A stretch of DNA of 11,745 nt, taken from positions 1 to 11,745 of the forward strand of contig JBKHVI010000071.1 in the NCBI GenBank assembly GCA_046570105.1. The letters are read 5' to 3'. This DNA is from Bacteriovoracia bacterium (lineage in GTDB: Bacteria > Bdellovibrionota > Bacteriovoracia > Bacteriovoracales > Bacteriovoracaceae). A model generated the notes under the pieces. It was not told where the DNA came from and did no database searches. It saw only the letters and a program-made list of their open reading frames with translations. Below, one piece after another: positions 158 through 11,745 of the stretch. Each line of letters begins with the position of its first letter. The first letter of the stretch is position 1. The translations under genes and the position numbers were made by a program.

Positions 158-1114
158 ATGGAACTTGTTATTGCGCTGGTTGCTCTGATTGTTGGTGTTT
201 TAATCTTGGGTTATGGCGCTGACATGTTTGTCGGTGGTGCATCCCACATTGCACGACGCTTTGGCATTCCTCCTGTGGTGATCGGTCTCACTGTTGTCGC
301 CTTTGGAACCTCTGCACCTGAAATGGCGGTCAATATTCTCGCTGCAATCCAAGGTAATAGCGGCATTGCTTACGGCAATGTGGTGGGCTCTAATACATTT
401 AACGTACTGGTCATTCTTGGCATCTGTGCCATCGTCAAACCACTCTCCGTCGGCAGTCAGTTAATTAGAATCGATATTCCTTTAATGGCAGTCGCCGCTG
501 CGATCTTGTGGTGGTTCTCTCAGGACGGAAGTCTCGGACGAATCGAGTCGACCGTATTGTTTGCGCTACTTTTGGCCTATATCGCTCTACAAGTTCGTCT
601 CTCGCTTAAAGAGCGCAATGCTACTAAAGAAGAGTTCGCTCAAGAGTTCAACGAGGGCGGACCGGTTTGGAAAAATATTTTATTCTTAGTGATTGGTCTC
701 GTTCTTCTCATCGCAGGCGCTAAGATGTTCGTTCATGGAGCGGTCACTCTCGCTCAATTGTGGGGCGTCTCTGAACAAGTGATTGCGCTTACAATCGTCT
801 CTGCTGGAACATCACTTCCTGAAGTAGCGACTTCCATCGCTGCTACCATGAAAGGTGAGCGTGAAATTGCAGTTGGTAATGTGGTGGGCTCAAACATCTT
901 TAACATCCTCGCTGTGCTGGGCATCTCAGGACTCTTAGCACCCAGTCCGATTATTGCCGATGCAGCGATGAGAGGAATTGATTTGCCGATCATGCTTTTA
1001 ACCTGTGTGGCGCTGGCGCCACTAGCAAAATTCCGCGGCAAATTCGAGCGTCCGGTCGGCGTGATTTTTCTCGCCGGCTACATAGCTTATACTGTGCATT
1101 TGATTTATCGCTAA
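158..1114 (+). CDS. yrbG: Calcium/sodium (cation:Ca2+, CaCA) antiporter, YrbG family
   Basis: 318 aa with about 10 hydrophobic segments. It has two alpha-repeats, GTSAPE...GNVVGSN and GTSLPE...GNVVGSN. RBS GAGGA lies at 150-154. Confidence 0.93.
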   Translation: MELVIALVALIVGVLILGYGADMFVGGASHIARRFGIPPVVIGLTVVAFGTSAPEMAVNILAAIQGNSGIAYGNVVGSNTFNVLVILGICAIVKPLSVGSQLIRIDIPLMAVAAAILWWFSQDGSLGRIESTVLFALLLAYIALQVRLSLKERNATKEEFAQEFNEGGPVWKNILFLVIGLVLLIAGAKMFVHGAVTLAQLWGVSEQVIALTIVSAGTSLPEVATSIAATMKGEREIAVGNVVGSNIFNILAVLGISGLLAPSPIIADAAMRGIDLPIMLLTCVALAPLAKFRGKFERPVGVIFLAGYIAYTVHLIYR

Positions 1115-2082
1115 TTTTTCTTAATCCAAAAACTCAGTGTTCTTAGAAATGCTTTTCGTCCGGGGCGCCCGTAAGGGGTGCCTTCGACGAAACGTAGGAA
1201 ACCGCGATTAGTGAGTTGGGAGATTTCGGTAGCAATCGTGGTGAGGTCTTGCTGGAAAAACTTCATCCAAGTGCGACTTTTTTCTGCCATGTAAGGAGTC
1301 GTATTCTCCAGTGGTTTATTGTTCCACGGACAAACGTCTTGGCAGATATCACAGCCAAAAATTTCTTCTCTGCCCTGCTCGCTGCCTTTGGGAGCCGCTA
1401 CATTTTCATCGCGCTCTTCAATCGTCCAAGTAGATAGACAGTCTTTTACTTTAATTGTGCGTGTTTCAGGATCAATCGCATCCGTGGGACAAGCATCGAC
1501 ACACGCTCGGCAAGTACCGCAATGGTCGGGAGTTATGGCTCCCTCTGCTAGCTCCCAAGTGCGATCAAACAACAAGGAACCGATCATAAAATAAGAGCCA
1601 TGTGTTCTGTGGATCATCATGGCATTTTTGCCAAACCACCCCAGGCCCGCGCGATGAGCGAGATCACGCTCGAGAACGGCTTCCGTGTCATGTGAGTGAC
1701 GAAATTCAAAACTGTACTGCGATTGCAGTTTGTGAGCGATAGCGTGAAGATTAGCCTTCATCAGTTCGTGATAATCCCGTCCTTCAAAACCCAAAGTATA
1801 GCCAGCGACACGATGGAACTTTGCTAAATTCATCGCTTTTTTTGTCGGAGTATAAGTAAAAAGAAAAACCAGCGCACTCTTGGCATGGGGCCAGTAGGCA
1901 TTGAGGTTTGAGCGGTAGTGAATATTTTTTTCGCTCTCAAGAAAAGGCAGCACGCCTTTATTTTTCTCTAACCAAGAAGAGAAGCGCTCAAAGCTTAGAG
2001 GTTTTGTTGCGGAAGTATACCCCCACTCCACTATGCCAAGTTGAGCGAGTTCATCGCTTGGGATATGGAGCAGATCTTTCAT
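1111..2082 (-). CDS. queG: tRNA epoxyqueuosine(34) reductase QueG (cobalamin, 2x[4Fe-4S])
   Basis: Motifs DYH, DT..VLERDLAHRAGLGWFGKN, HGSYFMIG, CGTCRACVDACP, CLSTWTIE and FGCDICQDVCPWN give the 8 cluster Cys. The start overlaps the pyk stop (ATGA at 2079-2082). Confidence 0.93.
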   Translation of the reverse strand: MKDLLHIPSDELAQLGIVEWGYTSATKPLSFERFSSWLEKNKGVLPFLESEKNIHYRSNLNAYWPHAKSALVFLFTYTPTKKAMNLAKFHRVAGYTLGFEGRDYHELMKANLHAIAHKLQSQYSFEFRHSHDTEAVLERDLAHRAGLGWFGKNAMMIHRTHGSYFMIGSLLFDRTWELAEGAITPDHCGTCRACVDACPTDAIDPETRTIKVKDCLSTWTIEERDENVAAPKGSEQGREEIFGCDICQDVCPWNNKPLENTTPYMAEKSRTWMKFFQQDLTTIATEISQLTNRGFLRFVEGTPYGRPGRKAFLRTLSFWIKKN

Positions 2083-3776
2083 GAATGTTTGGGAATGATC
2101 TCAATGGCGCCGGTAGGACAGACTCGCACGCATTCCATATCGAGGGTACACGCCTCGACTTTGCTGGGATCGATGCGAGTTTCTTTGGATTGATCCTGTG
2201 ACACTTTCCAAATATCGTGAGGGCAGATACTGACACATTGCTGGCAATAAGCGCAGACAGCTGTATCAAGTAAGAGCTTTCCCCGGGCAAAAGCCACCTC
2301 CTGAACCGTTTCATCTGAACCGGTTTGAGTGGCCTTAGGGACATCTTTAATAATCTCGACACGAATCGAGTTAGTAGAACCTTGTTGGAAGTAGCGGCCA
2401 TCACCTTTCGTGATAACAATCTTGTCACCATTCACCAGGCGACCTTTGGCCTTGAGATTCTCCATCATCGTTCTCTCAAGCACGGCCATCTCACCTTCAG
2501 TCGGTGTTTCCACGAAATACGGAGAGACGCCCCAGTAGAGCGCCATACGGCGAACGACTTTTAATGAATTCGTCACACCTAAAACTTGCGTTTTAGGACG
2601 GAAACGAGTCATTTCTAGACACGAATGGCCCGATTCGGTGATCGAGAGAATCCAGCGTGCGTTGGTTTTTTCTGCCACGATACTCGCTGCCACTTGAGTC
2701 GAAGCACTAACGCTAGAAATATCCATATGACGAAGCAATGGACGCTCCATCGGCTTGCGTTCAGCTTCACAGACAATCTGATTCATCATCTGAATCGTTT
2801 CTTCAGGATATGCACCCGAAGCCGTTTCTCCAGAGAGCATCACGCAATCAGTTCCATCCCAAACGGCGTTCGCCACGTCAGAGGCTTCCGCGCGTGTCGG
2901 GCGGGCATTGGTGATCATACTCTCAAGCATCTGAGTCGCGGTGATGACCGGTTTCCCAGCAGCGTTACAAGTCTTGATTAATTGTTTTTGAATCGAAGGC
3001 ACCAGATGGTTACCCACTTCCACACCCATATCACCACGAGCAATCATGATCATGTCAGAGACATGGATGATTTCGTCGATGTTGGTGATCGCTTCTGGTT
3101 TTTCAACTTTAGAAACGATCGGGATATCCACGCGCATTTTATGCAACATGCTTTTCACTGAGAGAATATCTTCTGCAGTACGAACGAAACTCAAAGCGAC
3201 ATAGTCGACGCCTTGCTTAAGTCCAAACATCAAGTCTTCATGGTCTTTGTCAGTATAGGAAGGGGCGGAAACTTTCACGTTTGGTAGATTAATACCCTTG
3301 TTACTCTTCAGCGCTCCGCCAACTTTCACGCGAATTTTGAGAACTTCGCCCTCTTTTGCAATCGCTTCCGCTTCGATCAGGCCATCATCAAACAAAATGA
3401 TCGCGCCCACTTCTGCATCTTTTACGAGGTCTTTATAAATTGTAGGAATAAAGCGCTCTTCATACTGCGGATACTTTGAGCGAATATCACTCGCGCCAAT
3501 CACCCATTCTTCACCGTTACCAAGCTGCAAAGGAGCTGGCACCTTATCAACGCGAATCTTGGGGCCTTGGAGATCTAAGAGTACTGCCACTTCACGACCA
3601 ACTTTGCGGCTGGCTTCACGGACGTTAGCAATGCTTTGAGCATGACCTTCGTGCGTGCCGTGAGACATATTAATGCGGGCGGCATTCATACCGGCACGGA
3701 TCAATTTCTCGAGCATTTCGACCGAGTTGGAGGATGGACCAATAGTGGCAATAATTTTCGCGCGACGTTCAGGCAT
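2079..3776 (-). CDS. pyk: Pyruvate kinase with C-terminal dicluster (4Fe-4S type) ferredoxin domain
   Basis: PK motifs are KIIATIGP, RINMSHG, DLQGPKIR, KGINLP, SKVEK, ARGDMGVE, ATQMLESM, RPTRAE, DCVMLSGETA and TNSIRV. About 90 extra residues follow, with CAYCQQCVSICP (C508-C518) and CTLDMECVRVCP (C543-C553). Confidence 0.96.
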   Translation of the reverse strand: MPERRAKIIATIGPSSNSVEMLEKLIRAGMNAARINMSHGTHEGHAQSIANVREASRKVGREVAVLLDLQGPKIRVDKVPAPLQLGNGEEWVIGASDIRSKYPQYEERFIPTIYKDLVKDAEVGAIILFDDGLIEAEAIAKEGEVLKIRVKVGGALKSNKGINLPNVKVSAPSYTDKDHEDLMFGLKQGVDYVALSFVRTAEDILSVKSMLHKMRVDIPIVSKVEKPEAITNIDEIIHVSDMIMIARGDMGVEVGNHLVPSIQKQLIKTCNAAGKPVITATQMLESMITNARPTRAEASDVANAVWDGTDCVMLSGETASGAYPEETIQMMNQIVCEAERKPMERPLLRHMDISSVSASTQVAASIVAEKTNARWILSITESGHSCLEMTRFRPKTQVLGVTNSLKVVRRMALYWGVSPYFVETPTEGEMAVLERTMMENLKAKGRLVNGDKIVITKGDGRYFQQGSTNSIRVEIIKDVPKATQTGSDETVQEVAFARGKLLLDTAVCAYCQQCVSICPHDIWKVSQDQSKETRIDPSKVEACTLDMECVRVCPTGAIEIIPKHS

Positions 3777-3782
3777 GGAGGG

Positions 3783-3812
3783 ATCTTACCCCATGCGCTT
3801 ATAATCGTTCAA
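3783..3812 (-). promoter_or_regulatory. Candidate sigma70 promoter giving a leaderless pyk-queG mRNA
   Basis: Minus strand reads TTGAAC (3812-3807), 18 nt, TAAGAT (3788-3783), CCCTCC, ATG (3776). There is no clear SD in the 9-nt gap. Confidence 0.5.
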
Positions 3813-5729
3813 CTGATCGATTTGCTGTTTTTGCGACAGCTTCAATTGGTTAATCTCGTTCTCATATTGAGAAATGAGTTGGGCCTTCTCCTGCTCTAGG
3901 GCCGACTTTAGACTCTTCATTTCATTTTTATGAAGAGCTTCTTTCTCGGCAAGCGCCTTATTTTGCGACACTTCCATCATTTTAATGCGGTTCTCATAGT
4001 CACTGACGGTGCCCTTGAGCTTCATTTCTGAGTTATAAGTTTGCTGGTCCATCTTACGAGAATAGCTATTACTTACCTCAAGAATCTTGTTTCTGAGGTT
4101 ATTCTCGCGCTGATCCATCAACATTTGATTCGACTTCGCATCGGCCTGACGCTTGTCTTCATAAATCTGCTGTTGCTGCTTCAACTGGCGATCGGCTTCC
4201 GCCATCACAAAGCCGACTTTCTGGTCGAGCTCATCGCGCAATTGGGCATTTTCACGGTTACTGGCCGCCAAGCGGGTTTCGTAGTTCCCCACCGTCGTGT
4301 CCATGAGATTATTAAAGTTACGACGCAAATCGAGGATCTCTTCATTGCGTTGCTGATTATTCATCGTAATAAAGGTCGCCTTGTCTTTATCCGTCTGGTC
4401 CTTTAGCTCTACGACAAACTTTTCATTTTTAGCAGCCAAGTCTTGCAAGCTCTTGTTGTAGTTCTCTTTCAACTTCTTGACTTGCCCACCGGCCTGATTT
4501 CTTTCGTTCACAATTTGATTTTCATAGCGCTGACGTTCAGCATGCTGGCTAGCACTCTGGGTAGAGTGAAGCTGTTGAGCCTTTTCACGCTCATTGGCGA
4601 CATGAACAATCTTATCCGCAGTCAACTCACGCTCTTTTCTTTCAAGGCGAGAGGCGGCTTCGGCTGATTCGACGTGAATAGCATCTTTATAAGCTTCAGA
4701 TTCATTCTCTAGGCGATTGTTATAATCGCGACGAGTTTGCACCAAGTTCTTACTCAATTTATCAATACGATCTTCAAAGACTTGGTCATCTTTGAGACCT
4801 TGCTGACGTTTTACTACTTCAGCAAATTCACCGCTGCCGTTATCACGGCGACGACGGTCAATATCAATATTACGCAAGTTCTTCTCGTAGCTACGACGAA
4901 CTTCACCTAACTCAGCACCGTGCTTTTTGTTATTTTGGAAATTCTCGCGCGCTTGCGCTTCTACGAACTCAGAGTTCTTTTTGTCGTAATCAGTCGACAT
5001 CTTAGCCGCGCGCTCATTAAAGTTACCTGAGAGCGTTTTCACTTTATCACTTAAATACGACTGCGACTGCTCAGCTTCTGCTGCATGGGCGGCCTTGGTG
5101 CGCTCAAGATCTTTTTGTAGACCTTCTTTCAACATAAAACGCTTCTGCGCTTCATCCTTGTAGATGCCTTCCAAATGCGTTTCATGAGAGCGGACTAGTT
5201 TTTCTTTTTCGCGCTTGTTTTGATCACGAATATCAGCACCAGAGCCAGACATCTTTTCCTGGAACGTCCGAATGCTTTTGTCTTTATCTTTCGTGATGCG
5301 ATCTACGTTTTTATGATAGCGCGCACTTCTCTCAGAGCTGACTTCTTCGTTGATTTTCTTTTCGCCTTCAAAAGCACGCGTATAAGAATCTTTAATATCG
5401 CGGAAGCGACCATCAAAATCTTTGCGCATCGTCGCGCGCTCAGACAGGAAGCGCTCTTTGTCGGCCTTATTCATTTTATGAAAGCGCTCTTTCTGCTGCT
5501 CGATACTTTCTTGCGTGCGCTCTTTCACGTTACTGATATTCGCCTGGTAGTCTTTCTCAAGCTCAGTGCGATTCTTCTCGAAATTGTTGTATTGCTTTTT
5601 CTGAATAGATTTATGGCGATTTTCTTCTTCCGCTAGATATTGTTTATTTTGAGCGCGATCCTTCTGAATCGTCTCTTGATAATTATCTCGCTCGCGCGCC
5701 AAGGCCTTTGAATAGTCTACACCGTTCAT
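3786..5729 (-). CDS. Hypothetical 647-aa all-helical protein with hendecad (11-residue) coiled-coil repeat
   Basis: Long ORF with RBS GAGGA (5740-5736) 6 nt before ATG. It is rich in E/K/Q/R/N, has no Pro, Trp or Cys, and shows no signal peptide or TM segment. Aromatic residues recur every 11 positions. Confidence 0.88.
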   Translation of the reverse strand: MNGVDYSKALARERDNYQETIQKDRAQNKQYLAEEENRHKSIQKKQYNNFEKNRTELEKDYQANISNVKERTQESIEQQKERFHKMNKADKERFLSERATMRKDFDGRFRDIKDSYTRAFEGEKKINEEVSSERSARYHKNVDRITKDKDKSIRTFQEKMSGSGADIRDQNKREKEKLVRSHETHLEGIYKDEAQKRFMLKEGLQKDLERTKAAHAAEAEQSQSYLSDKVKTLSGNFNERAAKMSTDYDKKNSEFVEAQARENFQNNKKHGAELGEVRRSYEKNLRNIDIDRRRRDNGSGEFAEVVKRQQGLKDDQVFEDRIDKLSKNLVQTRRDYNNRLENESEAYKDAIHVESAEAASRLERKERELTADKIVHVANEREKAQQLHSTQSASQHAERQRYENQIVNERNQAGGQVKKLKENYNKSLQDLAAKNEKFVVELKDQTDKDKATFITMNNQQRNEEILDLRRNFNNLMDTTVGNYETRLAASNRENAQLRDELDQKVGFVMAEADRQLKQQQQIYEDKRQADAKSNQMLMDQRENNLRNKILEVSNSYSRKMDQQTYNSEMKLKGTVSDYENRIKMMEVSQNKALAEKEALHKNEMKSLKSALEQEKAQLISQYENEINQLKLSQKQQIDQLNDYKRMG

Positions 5730-5860: not shown

Positions 5861-6892
5861 TTAGAGACGAGAGAGTTCCTCATCTACCAATTCAGAGAAG
5901 ATCTCGATCGGTTGAGCGCCATTGATCAGCTGACCGTTGACGAAAAAGGTCGGAGTTGACTTCACTTTTAACTTCTTCCCGTCTTCCATATCCTGCTTCA
6001 CTTTGCTCAGATACTTATTAGAATCCAAGCACGCATCAAATGCCTCACCCTTTACGCCCACTTTACGAGCAAGAGCTTTTAGAGAGGGAACATCGAGTTT
6101 GTCTTGTGACTTAAACATAGCATCGTGCATTTTCCAGAACAAATCTGGACTCTGCTCGTTAGCACAAAGACCTGCAACGGCTGCGCCTTCTGCTTGATTG
6201 TGGAATGGCAGTGGGAAGTTCTTGAAAGCGACCTTGATCTTGTTGCCGTATTTTTTCTTAAGGTCATTCAGAATATCAGCACCGCGTGAGCAGAACGGAC
6301 ACTGGAAATCAGAGTATTCAACGATCGTGACTTTAGCATCTTTACCGCCTGCAACTGGAGCATCTCCGACTTGCACATCAAAAGATGGGCGGCGTGGTTT
6401 TTGAATGAAAACTTGAACTGGGTTTTTTGCTGTTTGCTTGCCTAACCACTGGTCCATCGCCTCTTTGCGTTTTTCCATTTCAAGGTAGCCCTTGATTTTT
6501 TCACGCACCATCGGATTGATGCTCTCTTGTGGAATCTGCTGCTTCTTGATGAAGGCATCGATATCGCCGTCAGAGATTTTTACGTTCTTAGCGATGTTCT
6601 TCTCGAGGTACTCATCATTCGACATACCTTTCTTCGCTGGATCTTTATCCATAATCTTTTGCATGACGATTCCACGCAAACGGTTGTTCTTAATTTCGAA
6701 CAACTTCGTCTCAGCTTCATAAAGCTCGGCCTCAATGCCTTCCATCAACTCAGCTTCTGTGATTTCGATATCACCCCACTGAGCTGCGATGCCAGGCTTA
6801 GCCGCTGGCTTAAATTGAAAATTAGGTTTGCTGATTGAATCAGAACAGGCGGCGACAAACATCATGATCGCCAATAAAGAAATTAGTTTCAT
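5861..6892 (-). CDS. DsbA-like thioredoxin-fold thiol-disulfide oxidoreductase, predicted lipoprotein
   Basis: Active site EYSDFQCPFC, NFPLPFH, and cis-Pro loop STPTFFVNG. The start is moved to ATG 6892 because AAGGAG (6904-6899) precedes it and it yields the signal peptide MKLISLLAIMMFVAA-C (lipobox). Confidence 0.9.
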   Translation of the reverse strand: MKLISLLAIMMFVAACSDSISKPNFQFKPAAKPGIAAQWGDIEITEAELMEGIEAELYEAETKLFEIKNNRLRGIVMQKIMDKDPAKKGMSNDEYLEKNIAKNVKISDGDIDAFIKKQQIPQESINPMVREKIKGYLEMEKRKEAMDQWLGKQTAKNPVQVFIQKPRRPSFDVQVGDAPVAGGKDAKVTIVEYSDFQCPFCSRGADILNDLKKKYGNKIKVAFKNFPLPFHNQAEGAAVAGLCANEQSPDLFWKMHDAMFKSQDKLDVPSLKALARKVGVKGEAFDACLDSNKYLSKVKQDMEDGKKLKVKSTPTFFVNGQLINGAQPIEIFSELVDEELSRL

Positions 6893-6917
6893 TTCAAACT
6901 CCTTGAAAATATGACCT

Positions 6918-6947
6918 ATCATAACGAGACTTCGTGCTCTCGTCCAA
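6918..6947 (-). promoter_or_regulatory. Candidate sigma70 promoter of the DsbA-like gene, with an inverted repeat in the spacer
   Basis: TTGGAC (6947-6942), 18 nt, TATGAT (6923-6918). The dyad ACGAGA-N8-TCTCGT lies at 6924-6943. Confidence 0.5.
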
Positions 6948-6963
6948 GAAGTAAAAAACTCAA

Positions 6964-8685
6964 CTATCCCGCTAAATGTTTGAGGAAATCCTTAAAAAGA
7001 TCTGAGCGCTGAGACAACTCCGCTGGTGTCCCGATATCCACTAAGACACCCGCATCCATCACCACGAGACGTTGGGCAGAAAGAATTGTTTCTACGCGGT
7101 GAGTGACGATAATCGTGAGTGAGTGCTGCTGCACAAAAAGCACCAAGTCGCGAAGAGCGCGCTCGAGATCAGGATCAAGCCCGGAAGACACTTCATCAAA
7201 CAAAACGATCGGTTTACGCAAATAACAGGCACGCAGGCCACTGAGTAACTGCTTTTGACCTAAGGACAACGTCTTGGGATCAATCACACTTGTGGGAGTA
7301 ATGCCCCAACGACGCAAATACGGCAGAGCCGCCTGGGCCTTTTGCCAAAACTCATCAAAATCCAAACTATCTTCACTCAAAGCGACATTAAAGCGCACAC
7401 TGGCGGAGAACACGTGGGAATCTTGCGAAACGAGACTCACCTGCTGACAAAGCTGAAACAGATCGGCGTTCTTCTCCATACTGAGCGAGAGATCATTCAA
7501 TTTCATGATGCCCTGAAACGATCCGTGCTGACCGGACAACAGACGCAAGAGTGTCGACTTGCCACAGCCCGATGAACCGACAATCCCAATCAGCTCACCT
7601 GGTTTTCCGGAGAAGACAATATTTTTTAATTCAAAGGCACTCTCTCCTTCGCGAGGAGGATAGGCGTAGTAATCCACGCGCACTTTGAATTCATTTAATT
7701 CAATCACATCACTCTTGGTGTTCAATTCGTCTTGGGCAAAGTGCATTTGGAAATCCAAGATTCTCTCAACACCCGTCTTCGCACGCTGGATACTGGAAAT
7801 TTTTCCCGCGACCTCTTTAATCGGTGTAATGGATTTCTGAATCAGATCAATCAACACCGCTAAGAGAGCAAGCTTGGCCCCTTGGCCATCAGGGAAGAAG
7901 AACAACACCAATGCCAACAAAATCGGATAAAGCGATTCCGCCGCTGAGTAATAACCCGCATCCCAGACATTGGACTTCAATTGCTTCTGTAAAAAATCAT
8001 CAAACACGCGATCCCCGCGTTTCGAGGCGTATTTGGCGTGCGGTGTGAAAGCCAACTCGCGCAGACCTTGGGTGACATCCGTCACCACGCGCGACAAATA
8101 CCCCGTGCTCTGGCGAACCGAGGCAAAAATCACACCCATCTTGCGTGAGCCCCAAATCAACAACACACAGGCGACAAGTTCTAAGAAAAATAATCCACCA
8201 CCGAGTCCCGCATCGAGGCGCAAGAAACCAATCAAGGCGGAAACAATAAAGACAAAATCAATAAAGATGGCAAAAGCACCGGAGGTCACCAATTCTTTCA
8301 CGGCATCACTGTCCGACATAATCCGTGCGAGAACTTCACCCATCGGAAATTCGTCTTCTTGGCCCTTGCGACGAATTTTCAACGGCGCTCGCATCCACAA
8401 ACCAAACGTGCGTGCGCGCGTCTCACCCAAGAGATGCTGAACATACTTATAGGTACTGATCTGATAACCCAGACGATTCACATACTCGGCGAGGAACAAT
8501 CCACCTAAAACCAAGAATGGAGTCAGGGCATCTTTTTGAAAATCCTGATAAAAATCTTCTGTGATCCCAGGCAATAGAATACCAATCACGGCCGTGAGGG
8601 CCATGTGAAATAGCATCATACCTAACCAGCGCCGACCTTTCTCAGGGATGAGAAACGGCAACCAGTTGTTCACGGAAAAATTCAA
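6964..8685 (-). CDS. ABC exporter half-transporter (TMD-NBD), MdlB/YheH-like subunit
   Basis: N-terminal TM domain, Walker A GSSGCGKS, Q-loop VSQD, deviant signature LSLGQ, Walker B VLFDE and H-loop THR. The TTG start has GAGGGAG 6 nt upstream and overlaps the partner gene by 44 nt. Confidence 0.92.
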   Translation of the reverse strand: MNFSVNNWLPFLIPEKGRRWLGMMLFHMALTAVIGILLPGITEDFYQDFQKDALTPFLVLGGLFLAEYVNRLGYQISTYKYVQHLLGETRARTFGLWMRAPLKIRRKGQEDEFPMGEVLARIMSDSDAVKELVTSGAFAIFIDFVFIVSALIGFLRLDAGLGGGLFFLELVACVLLIWGSRKMGVIFASVRQSTGYLSRVVTDVTQGLRELAFTPHAKYASKRGDRVFDDFLQKQLKSNVWDAGYYSAAESLYPILLALVLFFFPDGQGAKLALLAVLIDLIQKSITPIKEVAGKISSIQRAKTGVERILDFQMHFAQDELNTKSDVIELNEFKVRVDYYAYPPREGESAFELKNIVFSGKPGELIGIVGSSGCGKSTLLRLLSGQHGSFQGIMKLNDLSLSMEKNADLFQLCQQVSLVSQDSHVFSASVRFNVALSEDSLDFDEFWQKAQAALPYLRRWGITPTSVIDPKTLSLGQKQLLSGLRACYLRKPIVLFDEVSSGLDPDLERALRDLVLFVQQHSLTIIVTHRVETILSAQRLVVMDAGVLVDIGTPAELSQRSDLFKDFLKHLAG

Positions 8686-10309
8686 ACAACGCTCCCTCAG
8701 TCAATTTATCCTGACCTGACCCAATAGCTTTCACACCGATCTTGGGATCTAGTAAAATCGTCTTGTCACACGTCCGCACCGTGGTTAAACGATGAGACGT
8801 TAAAATAAATGTCTTCTTCTTGATATCAGCGCGACTACGCAGCACTTGAATAATTTTTCGCTCGAGCAATAAATCCACCGATGAGAACGGATCATCCCAC
8901 AGAACCACATCACTGGGGGCCAAGAGCGAGCGAACCAGTGCCAAGCGCTTGGCCTGTCCACCGGATAACCTCTTCCCATTCTCTCCCACTTCTAATTCCA
9001 AAAGTGAGCCATCGCCGGACGCGAGAATATCTAAACCAAATAGCTTCAACAGTTCCAACGCAAACGCGCGATCACCTTCCAAAACCTCACGGCCTAAGAA
9101 AATATTGGCTTCAATCGTGTCATTAAACAAATAAGGCTCTTGTTGCACCATCGCGAATGGAATCTTGTGCGCGGCCAGACGATGGGCCATTTTGCGCAAC
9201 AACTCTGACTTCCCACTCCCCGTCTCACCACAGATCACCGTCCATGAACCGATACCCAGTTCAACCGCAATACGTGACTCCCAATAAGGCAGTGAAAATT
9301 TCAAATCACTCGAACTCTGATTCAACTCACCTAACCAATGCGCCTCTTCCGGGTGCACCTCATTGATCACCTTATACAAACCCTTCACTCGCTTCCAAGC
9401 AGCGTAACCTTGTGTCGCCACAATCGCCATCCACGACAAAAACATCAACGGCTCAAGCATCAAAAATAAATATCCCGCAAAGAACACCAAATCCGATGCT
9501 CCCCCACCACTCTCTCGCAAAATCCAAGCGCCCCATAACAGCGATGCGCCTAAACCTAAACGAATCATCGGTACGCTAAAAGCAAAACCTACTGATGATT
9601 TGAAAAACAATCCCAATTCAACTGAAGAGAGATCCACAAAGCGCTGAATAAAAGTTTCTTCACGATGATAATTCTTCACCGTCGCCTTCGCGGCATAGGA
9701 TTCAATCACATGGTTTTGTACTTGCCCTTGAGCATCTAGCGCGCGCTTAGCGTATTTTTGAAAGACCGCCGTTAAAACAGAGAATAATAAAACCGACACC
9801 CCCATGGGAATGAACGCCGGCCACATACCTGACGACGCTTCATTCAAACGCGGGATCATCACCCACGCCGCCACGATCACATTCCCGACCTGCAACAGCG
9901 CAAATCCTACAAACCCACGCAGATTGTTAAAGTCATTAAACAGCACTTGATACAACTGCCCATCATTCCAAGCAGCGTAGCGCGCCGGCGGAGTTTCTTC
10001 TAAGCGCTCCAACATCTCTGTACGCAAGAGTTTCTGTTGATAGCGTGCGGGAGTGAAAAATAATAAACGCGAGAGCGTTCTAAAAACCAAAATCCCAAGC
10101 GCAATTAATAAAAACGTGCCAATCGGTGCGTCCGGCAAACCCGTTCCACCCATGGCACCATCAGTAAGTTTCTTCACTTCCGCCGGAAGTTGCGTCTGTA
10201 AGCGATGCAAGGCCCAGAGTGAAAAGAAGGCGCCCAGGTACCAAAACCAGAATTCAAAAAAATGGGCTGTGAGCCAGGGAAGAAATTTGCGATGGAGACG
10301 CTGTGACAT
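8642..10309 (-). CDS. ABC exporter half-transporter (TMD-NBD), MdlA/YheI-like subunit
   Basis: TM domain, Walker A GETGSGKS, QEP, VGENGKRLSGGQ, degenerate Walker B VLWDD, PFSSVD and SHR. The start is uncertain: ATG 10309 is preferred over 10342 because a -10-like TAGACT lies between them. Confidence 0.9.
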   Translation of the reverse strand: MSQRLHRKFLPWLTAHFFEFWFWYLGAFFSLWALHRLQTQLPAEVKKLTDGAMGGTGLPDAPIGTFLLIALGILVFRTLSRLLFFTPARYQQKLLRTEMLERLEETPPARYAAWNDGQLYQVLFNDFNNLRGFVGFALLQVGNVIVAAWVMIPRLNEASSGMWPAFIPMGVSVLLFSVLTAVFQKYAKRALDAQGQVQNHVIESYAAKATVKNYHREETFIQRFVDLSSVELGLFFKSSVGFAFSVPMIRLGLGASLLWGAWILRESGGGASDLVFFAGYLFLMLEPLMFLSWMAIVATQGYAAWKRVKGLYKVINEVHPEEAHWLGELNQSSSDLKFSLPYWESRIAVELGIGSWTVICGETGSGKSELLRKMAHRLAAHKIPFAMVQQEPYLFNDTIEANIFLGREVLEGDRAFALELLKLFGLDILASGDGSLLELEVGENGKRLSGGQAKRLALVRSLLAPSDVVLWDDPFSSVDLLLERKIIQVLRSRADIKKKTFILTSHRLTTVRTCDKTILLDPKIGVKAIGSGQDKLTEGALFEFFREQLVAVSHP

Positions 10310-10317
10310 AGAGGAGA

Positions 10318-10347
10318 AGTCTAGCGACGCGCAGAGCAGCATGTCCT
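10318..10347 (-). promoter_or_regulatory. Candidate sigma70 promoter of the ABC operon (near-leaderless)
   Basis: AGGACA (10347-10342), 18 nt, TAGACT (10323-10318), TCTCCTCT, ATG 10309. No SD. Confidence 0.4.
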
Positions 10348-10406: not shown

Positions 10407-10483
10407 GCGCCCGTAGCTCAGTTGGTTAGAGTATTACCTTGACATGGTAGGGGTCACAAGTTCGAATCTTGTCGGGCGCACCA
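10407..10483 (+). tRNA. tRNA-Val (anticodon GAC)
   Basis: Acceptor stem GCGCCCG/CGGGCGC, D arm GCTC-AGTTGGTTA-GAGT, anticodon arm TTACC-TTGACAT-GGTAG (GAC at 10441-10443), T arm ACAAG-TTCGAAT-CTTGT, discriminator A and encoded CCA. Length 77 nt. Confidence 0.98.
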
Positions 10484-10518
10484 TTCTTTTTAGTTATGTT
10501 TTGAGGCAAGCTTACCCT

Positions 10519-10704
10519 ATGGAAAAAGCAGTTATAACCTCAGATCAATCCGAACAATCAAAGCTCCCTCATGATCAACTCAATCTGATTGAGCGCAATC
10601 TTGAATTGTCCATCGATGAACGAATTAACCAACTCCAAAGTGCCGTAGACTTGATTGAAGAGATGAGGCGCTCATTGAGAGAAGTAAATGAGAACAGATT
10701 TTAG
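10519..10704 (+). CDS. 61-aa helical hypothetical protein, candidate antitoxin
   Basis: The track ORF 10444..10704 starts inside the tRNA, and the next in-frame ATG is 10519 (MEKAVIT...LIERNLELSIDERINQLQSAVDLIEEMRRSL...). It overlaps the nucleotidyltransferase start by 17 nt. Confidence 0.7.
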   Translation: MEKAVITSDQSEQSKLPHDQLNLIERNLELSIDERINQLQSAVDLIEEMRRSLREVNENRF

Positions 10705-11170
10705 AACACTCATAAGCAAGCTTGCCGAAAACGGATTTGAATTTGTTGTTGTTGGCGGTTTTGCAGCTTCGGCTTATGGATCAACTTATGTTACCCACGA
10801 TTTGGATGTCTGCGCAGTTCTGACACCGGAGAATATTACAAAGTTAAGGAAAATCTTAGAGGATATTCATCCTCTACATCGAATGATGATTCCAAAAAAG
10901 TCTTTCATTGAAATCCCAGAAAACCTAGAAGGTATTAATAATCTCTATCTCTCGACAGATGCAGGGGTACTTGATCTTATTTCTAATGTAGTTGGTGTCG
11001 GAGATTTCTCTGTTGTTTGTAAGTCGGCAGTTGAAATTACAATTCTCGGGAACAAATGCAAGATCATCTCACTGGACGATCTCATTAAATGTAAGAAGAC
11101 CTTAAAAAGACCTAAGGATCTGTTAGTTGCAGATGAATTAGAAGTCATTCGAGCAAAAGAAAAAAAGTGA
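10688..11170 (+). CDS. Pol-beta-superfamily nucleotidyltransferase (AbiEii/DUF1814/MenT1-like), candidate toxin
   Basis: Motifs VVVGGFAASAYG..VTHDLDV (G23-G24, T36, D38, D40), VLDLI and LIKCK....RPKD in 160 aa. Confidence 0.8.
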   Translation: MRTDFRTLISKLAENGFEFVVVGGFAASAYGSTYVTHDLDVCAVLTPENITKLRKILEDIHPLHRMMIPKKSFIEIPENLEGINNLYLSTDAGVLDLISNVVGVGDFSVVCKSAVEITILGNKCKIISLDDLIKCKKTLKRPKDLLVADELEVIRAKEKK

Positions 11171-11237: not shown

Positions 11238-11594
11238 ATGAAAAACTTCCTCGCCATCTACACTTGTGCCGAAAACAGTGCCAACCACCAAGCGTGGAAG
11301 AAGCTGGATGAAAAGACACAGCAAGAGCGTTTGCAGCTTGGCATGAAAGCGCTTGGGGAATGGATGACGAAGTATAAAGACCACATCGTCCATCAGGGTG
11401 GCCCTTTGGGTAATCAAACTAAAAGAATTAACACTCAAGGTATTACAGATGCTCCCAGCTTGATGGGAGCATTCTTGATTGTGAAGGCCAACTCTCACGA
11501 CGAGGCGGCCAGCATGTTCTTAGAGCATCCCCACTTTGCTATTTTCCCGGGCGATGGTGTGGAAGTATTGGAGTGTCTTGAAACTCCCCGCTGA
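11238..11594 (+). CDS. YciI-family (dimeric alpha/beta barrel) protein
   Basis: 118 aa with the pattern F-LAIY ... W ... GGPLG.TKRI...GITD ... MGAFLIVKANSHDEAA.MF.EHPH ... GVEVLE, typical of YCII-related proteins. Confidence 0.75.
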   Translation: MKNFLAIYTCAENSANHQAWKKLDEKTQQERLQLGMKALGEWMTKYKDHIVHQGGPLGNQTKRINTQGITDAPSLMGAFLIVKANSHDEAASMFLEHPHFAIFPGDGVEVLECLETPR

Positions 11595-11745
11595 TTTCAA
11601 TTATCTCTGTGAGCACGTCTTTGCTGTCTGTGGTTTCACCTACACGCAACCTGTTGCAGAAGCTGAGAGCGCAGAATATGAGGCCTATCGATTCAAACTC
11701 AACGGCCAAGCCGTTTGCTATCGCCAAGCGAAAGTCACACCGACC
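11578..11745 (+). CDS. mepB: MepB-family protein, 5' part (runs off the window end)
   Basis: Frame +1 reads (TTG)KLPADFNYLCEHVFAVCGFTYTQPVAEAESAEYEAYRFKLNGQAVCYRQAKVTPT. This matches the remembered MepB N-terminal pattern E.ES.EY.A..F.L.G....R.AK.TP. GGAG lies at 11570-11573; an alternative ATG is at 11554. Confidence 0.75.
   Translation, partial: MKLPADFNYLCEHVFAVCGFTYTQPVAEAESAEYEAYRFKLNGQAVCYRQAKVTPT

Follow-up and report, generated by a model that had tools for sequence, protein, structure and literature searches.

Why should a pyruvate kinase carry a ferredoxin at its end, and is the fused polypeptide the only product of its gene? The question is raised by contig JBKHVI010000071.1 of assembly GCA_046570105.1 (a Bacteriovoracia bacterium, family Bacteriovoracaceae), of which the window, the whole stretch of 11,745 nucleotides (nt), holds a single open frame of 565 amino acids (aa) on its minus strand. 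This gene, here called pyk-fd, joins pyruvate kinase (PK) to a dicluster ferredoxin. We lean towards the view that the ferredoxin is a cluster-gated regulatory domain whose dose would be set by recoding at the junction. A sequence-only reading of the window had seen that the kinase runs without a stop into the ferredoxin; it overlooked a frameshift cassette at the junction and a histidine of the barrel, His212, that goes with the fusion. The gene is divided as follows.

2079-3776 (-): pyk-fd gene, full-length product of 565 aa (open reading frame (ORF), Pfam, TIGR01064, homologue search)
2349-3776 (-): PK core, residues 1-476, with intact active site (Pfam, TIGR01064, Foldseek, residue check)
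2307-2348 (-): flexible linker, residues 477-490 (AlphaFold; pLDDT below 50 over 481-487)
2082-2306 (-): bacterial dicluster ferredoxin domain, residues 491-565 (Pfam, AlphaFold, fold comparison)

Pfam assigned residues 4-328 to the PK barrel, 363-473 to PK_C and stretches within 502-559 to Fer4. Only Fer4 families were found after residue 473, where Bacillus-type kinases have a PEP-utiliser (swivel) domain behind PK_C. The protein scored 531.5 bits with TIGR01064 (pyruvate kinase; curated cut-off 306.4), and the top Foldseek matches of its model were all PKs. Ten residues that we take to be catalytic (R34, N36, H39, D68, R75, K223, E225, G248, D249 and T281) were each unchanged in 83/83 alignment rows. 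By family score and active site, pyk-fd is predicted to encode a pyruvate kinase. It also carries the signature of K+-independent enzymes, L113/Q114/K117/(L,I,V)120 in rabbit numbering (PMC8835810), as L69, Q70 and K73 in 83/83 rows and V76 in 77/83. In the AlphaFold model (83 alignment rows, mean pLDDT 89.6, pTM 0.83) the kinase part was normal, disorder was confined to residues 481-487 and the first element of a folded domain was a beta-hairpin near residue 491 (nt 2306). Since this hairpin belongs to the domain, the ferredoxin measures about 75 aa: the ferredoxin proposed from sequence is there, larger than the 65 aa it was given, and so is the polar linker, disordered only in its 481-487 part.

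With residues 470-565 as query, the check that the sequence-only reading had proposed, 209 proteins matched among 227 candidates. All of the at least 120 C-terminal matches listed had the PK + PK_C + Fer4 architecture, and those with names were Bacteriovoracaceae. The fusion is neither chance nor an assembly artefact. A search of the ESM Atlas gave no usable match.

The two cysteine motifs of the domain were placed by alignment and agree with their first description.

2220-2255 (-): motif 1, C508-C511-C514-C518-P519
2115-2150 (-): motif 2, C543-D546-C549-C553-P554, with Asp (nt 2139-2141) in place of the second Cys

The seven cysteines were unchanged in 121/121 aligned fusions and D546 was present in 120 of them; in pooled, partly overlapping sets Asp546 was found in 247/249 rows. 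The domain therefore departs from the canonical 2x[4Fe-4S] pattern (two CxxCxxCxxxCP, eight cysteines) and has the traits of a 7Fe or Asp-site dicluster ferredoxin, a dicluster fold with the second Cys of one motif changed to Asp. Compared with dicluster ferredoxin folds the isolated domain gave Z scores of 8.0-8.9, all tied, that of the 7Fe ferredoxin 2vkr among them (Z 8.1, rmsd 1.6, 62 aligned). In known ferredoxins such a site holds either [3Fe-4S] or [4Fe-4S], the latter Asp-ligated and labile to oxygen (PMC2946596). From these conserved ligands the domain can be predicted with high confidence to bind Fe-S clusters, one of them at a labile 3Fe or Asp-4Fe site. The Sulfolobales Zn ferredoxins 1xer and 2vkr and the Pyrococcus furiosus ferredoxin share the fold and the Cys-to-Asp change; unlike them, pyk-fd has its Asp in the C-terminal motif, lacks a Zn extension and is fused to a kinase. 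No close free-standing form of the domain was found; of three short matches, the two named pyruvate kinase were read as fragments.

A likely answer to the second part of our question lies at the junction. Over window positions 2302-2266 the order is AGGAGG, 13 nt, G_GGA_AAG, 6 nt and CTT GAT.

2295-2302 (-): internal Shine-Dalgarno (SD)-like AGGAGGTG, its AGGAGG ending 13 nt before the slippery heptamer
2277-2283 (-): slippery heptamer G_GGA_AAG, Gly499-Lys500 in frame 0 (motif ranking in PMC4066793)
2231-2268 (-): 3′ stem-loop, outer stem 2268-2262 with 2237-2231, beginning 8 nt after the heptamer
2266-2268 (-): TGA in the -1 frame (sequence), within the unchanged codons Leu503 CTT and Asp504 GAT
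2266-3776 (-): predicted -1 product, 503 aa with the end G-K-A-L-T-stop and none of the ferredoxin cysteines (from sequence)

For efficiency in E. coli, G_GG.A_AA.G ranks in the top three motifs, and stimulators act from 6-17 nt upstream (SD) and 5-8 nt downstream (structure) (PMC4066793). Both spacings in pyk-fd fall within these ranges, AGGAGG ending 14 nt ahead of the heptamer's second base and the stem lying 8 nt downstream. We analysed synonymous sites in 28 genes carrying the cassette, 25 of a related genus (g5) and three of the window's own genus. These sites were near saturation, with a median identical-codon fraction of 0.455, and codons 490-507 formed the sole peak of synonymous conservation in the gene (z 5.2, 0/20,000 permutations; next best window z 1.7). 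The exact cassette pattern was present in 51 of 237 family genomes, namely 46/51 of g5 and 5/11 of the window's genus, and a reversed control gave 0. Since the junction is absent from the assemblies of the five remaining g5 genomes, all 46 g5 genomes that cover it are exact. The base preceding GGA was G across Lys, Gln, Arg, Thr and Ala codons, which argues for selection at the nucleotide level. Shuffling of synonymous codons left the native hairpin ahead of its shuffled versions in 26/28 cassette genes (mean z -2.85; -2.66 for the window), compared with 5/61 of the genes lacking a site.

Of the 1,996 long ORFs in the window's genome, 31 have an in-frame G_GGA_AAG. An AGGAGG lying 9-15 nt upstream of this heptamer, of A_AAA_AAG or of A_AAA_AAA, each in frame, was found in pyk-fd alone among the 1,996. 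The sole Lys tRNA found there (the genome is 87.8% complete) has a UUU anticodon. An efficient heptamer, SD and structure at suitable spacing and suppressed synonymous variation are the sequence marks of a -1 frameshift of the dnaX or insertion sequence (IS) type, and the cassette very probably causes -1 ribosomal frameshifting. Other roles for the junction were considered and rejected: a start of translation at the SD that would yield a free ferredoxin, as no conserved start codon follows; an internal promoter, as no promoter-like match was found on the coding strand; and a known RNA family, as Rfam gave no match at the junction.

Relatives were then compared at the same place. A survey of the class covered 151 genomes, 145 with a PK match, of which 143 loci were read: 116 in-frame fusions, 4 split genes, 17 domain-less orthologues (at least 50% identity) and 6 divergent PKs. 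An efficient-type heptamer stood at the junction of 59 of the 120 domain-bearing loci, in 12/38 genera (28 G_GGA_AAG, 25 A_AAA_AAA and 6 A_AAA_AAG). Within the 8 codons before the first Cys, a -1 stop occurred in 54/55 in-frame loci with a site versus 27/61 without; in 30 further loci, a few already counted under named records, the figures were 9/9 and 10/21. Runs of A9-A11 were present at the junction in 24/120 loci and nowhere else in those genes, and all 20 in-frame A-run loci had stops in both shifted frames. In A-run loci, KKK was coded AAA AAA AAA in 18/38 cases at the junction versus 0/20 elsewhere. The window itself has no such run (longest run 3) and so no sign of transcriptional slippage, for which A9 or more is taken as the mark. 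The Leu503 codon follows the signal: CTT, giving a -1 stop, in 28/28 cassette genes, and CTA or TTA, giving a +1 stop, in 24/24 A-run genes. Two genes of genus g7 carried AGGAGG or GAGG 13 nt before A_AAA_AAG, together with a -1 TGA. The same heptamer was found at the junction of L187 (G021), L150 (G024) and L159 (G098), with a strong downstream hairpin in L187 (z -4.6) and an SD-like sequence at the window's 13-nt spacing in L150 and L159; these sites are possibly a third type of signal.

Four genomes, from three genera, have the ferredoxin in the -1 frame behind the A run, with the domain intact. The sequence-only reading had counted a linker frameshift in relatives as a case against the fusion. 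Such frameshifts do occur, yet the out-of-frame domain is under purifying selection (L033/L034, pS 0.32, pN 0.057), which fits recoding and not decay. When contigs from independent public runs were set against L034 no indel was listed, and among the 20 of 131 pieces shown one contig, 86% alike, crossed the run gap-free. No run near-identical to L034 was found (best share 0.28), no RNA run was listed, and there were no further split genes among 67 more genomes.

The domain is unevenly kept. One of the 17 domain-less orthologues was merely cut by a contig end, leaving 16 truly without it; they fall in about eight lineages of the FastTree tree, one being a genus inside the window's own clade, and the numbers of losses and gains are approximate because many forks are open (43/142 inner branches). 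Beyond Bacteriovoracaceae, fusions were found in 4/20 fetched loci of the phylum, in 1/80 metagenome loci (that scan mostly recovered general PKs) and in several representatives at about 40% identity; one distant cluster has members named Planctomycetota. The second motif of these distant fusions keeps Asp, once Glu. A different PK architecture was noted in G008:C4, G022:C14, G079:C247 and G341:C20, where second PK-barrel matches (31-37% identity) stand in frames of 666-733 aa.

What ties the domain to the kinase was sought in a screen of 169 PK columns conserved in 36 domain-bearing genera.

3141-3143 (-): His212, end of barrel helix 201-213, fusion-specific; predicted docking point or metal ligand

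His212 was invariant in the 36 domain-bearing genera and altered in 7/8 loss lineages (13/15 sequences), where random draws reached 2-6 (300 draws). By far the best column, it was present in 120/120 family fusions and 14/14 distant fusions versus about 4% of 101 ordinary PKs, as well as in 249/249 pooled fused rows (overlapping sets) and 30/30 further loci. Lys208, of the same helix, and Asp459, of the effector loop, were altered in 5/8 loss lineages. In the AlphaFold model, helix 201-213 sits between the strands carrying S196 and K223/E225. From the link between His212 and the presence of the domain we infer docking on the barrel: the ferredoxin probably docks at His212, this residue perhaps being the missing fourth ligand or the partner of Asp546. 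Cluster ligation across subunits is reportedly known from NsrR. The C domain of the kinase, to which the sequence-only reading had looked, does not carry His212, which belongs to the catalytic A barrel. The idea that redox, O2 or iron is sensed gains indirect support from the conserved Asp site and the fusion-specific His212. Four domain-less PKs outside the family (L096, L098, L105 and L207) have His212 and no ferredoxin motif in their fetched flanks; they are possibly recent losses.

Taken together, a simple model of the locus would run as follows. At G_GGA_AAG a share of the ribosomes would move one base back and then terminate, so that a 503-residue kinase lacking the domain is made beside the 565-aa form. 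In the latter, the predicted 7- or 8-iron ferredoxin would fold back on the catalytic barrel at His212, a residue that may complete or touch the site in which Asp546 stands for Cys. Docking would hold PK back, and a cluster that is damaged, left unfilled or oxidised would release it; the chances for this step, drawn by analogy, appear evenly balanced, and control might run the other way. How much PK is under cluster control would then depend on the mixture of long and short subunits in the PK tetramer. B. subtilis PK requires its extra C-terminal domain to inhibit itself during gluconeogenesis, and becomes constitutive without it (PMC11834443). Among the genes of the window's genome is one for PPDK, so that PK plausibly needs an off switch; heme-copper oxidase subunits are encoded there as well. 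More tentatively, and with some doubt, the barrel histidine might itself ligate an Fe-S cluster of its own ferredoxin, redox or iron switching PK, and several lineages might separately have reached recoding signals (-1 cassette, poly-A runs, split ORFs) that dilute the switch with sensor-less subunits.

Several observations weigh against a regulatory domain dosed by recoding. The domain has been lost in about eight lineages. An efficient-type site is absent from 61/120 fused genes, and 4/9 genes of the window's own genus have neither SD nor heptamer, two of these four keeping the -1 stop; hence two products are dispensable. The gene-wide expectation of 0.8 heptamers ignores the Lys-rich protein sequence at the junction, and kin are not independent. 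No 16S 3′ end with which the SD might pair was found in the window's incomplete genome. For the hairpin, 96.6% of cells were paired, and support came from invariance and G-U changes, with both-side changes in 1/13 pairs only. His212 was retained in 2/15 domain-less orthologues and 4/101 other PKs, and covariation between PK and ferredoxin (mutual information with average product correction, MI-APC; Meff 68) was noise with no usable signal.

How else could these data be read? The frameshifting might be real and the ferredoxin a tethered electron carrier, or an Fe-S store, parked through His212 for some other enzyme; the kinase would be unaffected and slippage would save iron or set the carrier-to-PK ratio. 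The dicluster fold is an ordinary one, close stand-alone relatives are lacking, which would allow the domain to serve the cell as carrier to some partner, and other POR_N-family oxidoreductases occur in some family genomes. The sequence-only reading had offered a tethered carrier too, but we consider it unlikely: a NifJ-size pyruvate:ferredoxin oxidoreductase (PFOR) was found in only 13/151 genomes, four with the fusion and two from which the domain has gone, with no case in the window's genus (g1) or g5; the window's genome had no POR_N match at its 87.8% completeness; and a docking residue invariant across lineages at about 40% identity exceeds the needs of a tether. PFOR as partner was rejected on its distribution. 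It is improbable, too, that the junction acts as a translational pause element (SD and hairpin), allowing time for PK to fold or for Fe-S to be loaded, or serves as an RNA-binding site, with little frameshifting and only the full protein of consequence. SD-like sequences and hairpins can slow ribosomes, here they stand exactly at the domain boundary, and half of the family lacks a slippery site. A pause leaves unexplained the G kept before GGA over five amino acids, the unchanged AAG and -1 stop, the Leu503 codon switch and the four out-of-frame genomes; the CsrA-type ANGGA motif is not kept at the second site, and the promoter and Rfam searches of the junction, both empty as given above, also speak against it. 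Least credible, and hardly to be expected, is that the cassette is inherited chance and the A runs mutational hotspots or assembly errors in a protein that is simply a fusion. Homopolymer errors usually shorten a run, each of the four split genes lacks a single base, and no public run came closer to the tested genome than the share of 0.28. Against this stand the near saturation of synonymous sites in the rest of the gene, the restriction of AAA AAA AAA to the junction and the contig from an independent run that retains the split register.

The gene downstream suggests a further partner.

1111-2082 (-): queG-like gene (epoxyqueuosine reductase), its start overlapping the pyk-fd stop (ATGA); a conserved neighbour

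It scored 188.8 versus the TIGR00276 cut-off of 200, with DUF1730 and a double-cluster domain present. The ferredoxin might donate electrons to QueG, the frameshift mainly tuning translational coupling into queG. The gene is directly next in 114/120 ferredoxin-bearing loci, often with the ATGA overlap, which ribosomes stopping at the -1 TGA would miss. We give this little credence: queG still adjoins 15/16 domain-less orthologues, so that the neighbourhood is independent of the ferredoxin, four fetched fusions of distant families have no queG downstream, and QueG has Fe-S motifs of its own. A dedicated QueG donor was rejected on this adjacency pattern.

The regulatory reading, with recoding setting its dose, finds its nearest likeness in E. 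coli dnaX, where a -1 ribosomal frameshift makes long and short subunits of one oligomer from one gene; tau and gamma are the analogues of the long and short PK subunits. Across taxa dnaX uses ribosomal frameshifting, A9-A10 transcriptional slippage (Thermus, Chlorobi) or, in some, two split ORFs (PMC3711429), and all three conditions recur in pyk-fd of Bacteriovoracaceae, as the heptamer cassette, the poly-A run and the ORF split in the genome. Unlike dnaX, it is a metabolic enzyme with a G_GGA_AAG heptamer, and the part that would be dropped is a predicted Fe-S domain. E. coli copA, or CopA(Z), is a chromosomal metal-related gene whose -1 frameshift yields a shorter product (PMC5009743); that product is a small metal-binding domain, whereas the short product predicted for pyk-fd is the enzyme minus its metal domain. 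The extra domain of Bacillus-type PK likewise follows the C domain, is patchy and often lost (PMC12428139), but has a PEP-utiliser-like beta/beta/alpha fold, where that of pyk-fd is a dicluster ferredoxin with a signature residue on the barrel.

The sequence-only reading knew of no characterised example, and our literature searches, with subscription journals mostly outside their coverage, likewise yielded no account of PK fused to a ferredoxin or of frameshifting in a PK gene. Annotation pipelines label the fusion merely 'pyruvate kinase'. To our knowledge, few programmed -1 frameshifts have been proven in housekeeping genes of bacterial chromosomes, the standard cases being dnaX and copA. 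The words 'pyruvate kinase' are absent from the recoding texts PMC5009743 (first 300,000 of 449,034 characters), PMC3711429 (with two supplement files) and bioRxiv 10.1101/2025.10.02.679949, so far as these were available, and 'pyruvate' from the text of PMC4066793; the cluster tables of the latter and the bioRxiv supplements lay outside coverage and may list the site. The parts are of known kinds (PKs that carry an added regulatory domain, ferredoxins with an Asp site, recoding as in dnaX); their combination appears undescribed. If true, this would be a first case of a pyruvate kinase gated by Fe-S, and would bring a new family of programmed frameshifting to light in core metabolism, the candidate having every stimulator, strong synonymous conservation and the three evolutionary states of dnaX in a core metabolic enzyme. 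In predatory bacteria, which alternate between open water and the interior of their prey, a PK with an Fe-S-tied barrel residue would directly couple glycolytic or gluconeogenic flux to oxygen, redox or iron.

Some further observations concern the rest of the window and its assembly. Positions 3786-5729 (-) encode a charged coiled-coil protein of 647 aa with no Pfam or NCBIfam match and weak Atlas leads only; its gene lies directly upstream of pyk in many family loci, in a conserved order ABC-ABC-DsbA-like-coiled coil-pyk-queG. Positions 5861-10342 (-) hold a DsbA/thioredoxin-like protein and an overlapping gene pair for an MsbA/SmdAB-like ABC exporter, all below named cut-offs. At 10444-11170 (+), where GC is lower (37-44%), an 86-aa ORF overlaps a 160-aa nucleotidyltransferase-like ORF (DUF2204); this looks like a small mobile two-gene module. 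Positions 11238-11745 (+) carry a 118-aa ORF without a family match and an ORF running past the window end; YCII-like and MepB-like proteins are what these may resemble. Finally, G000:C123:26-679 in the window's assembly gave a COX1 match with six TGA stops; it is likely a contig read with TGA as Trp (organellar or other contamination).

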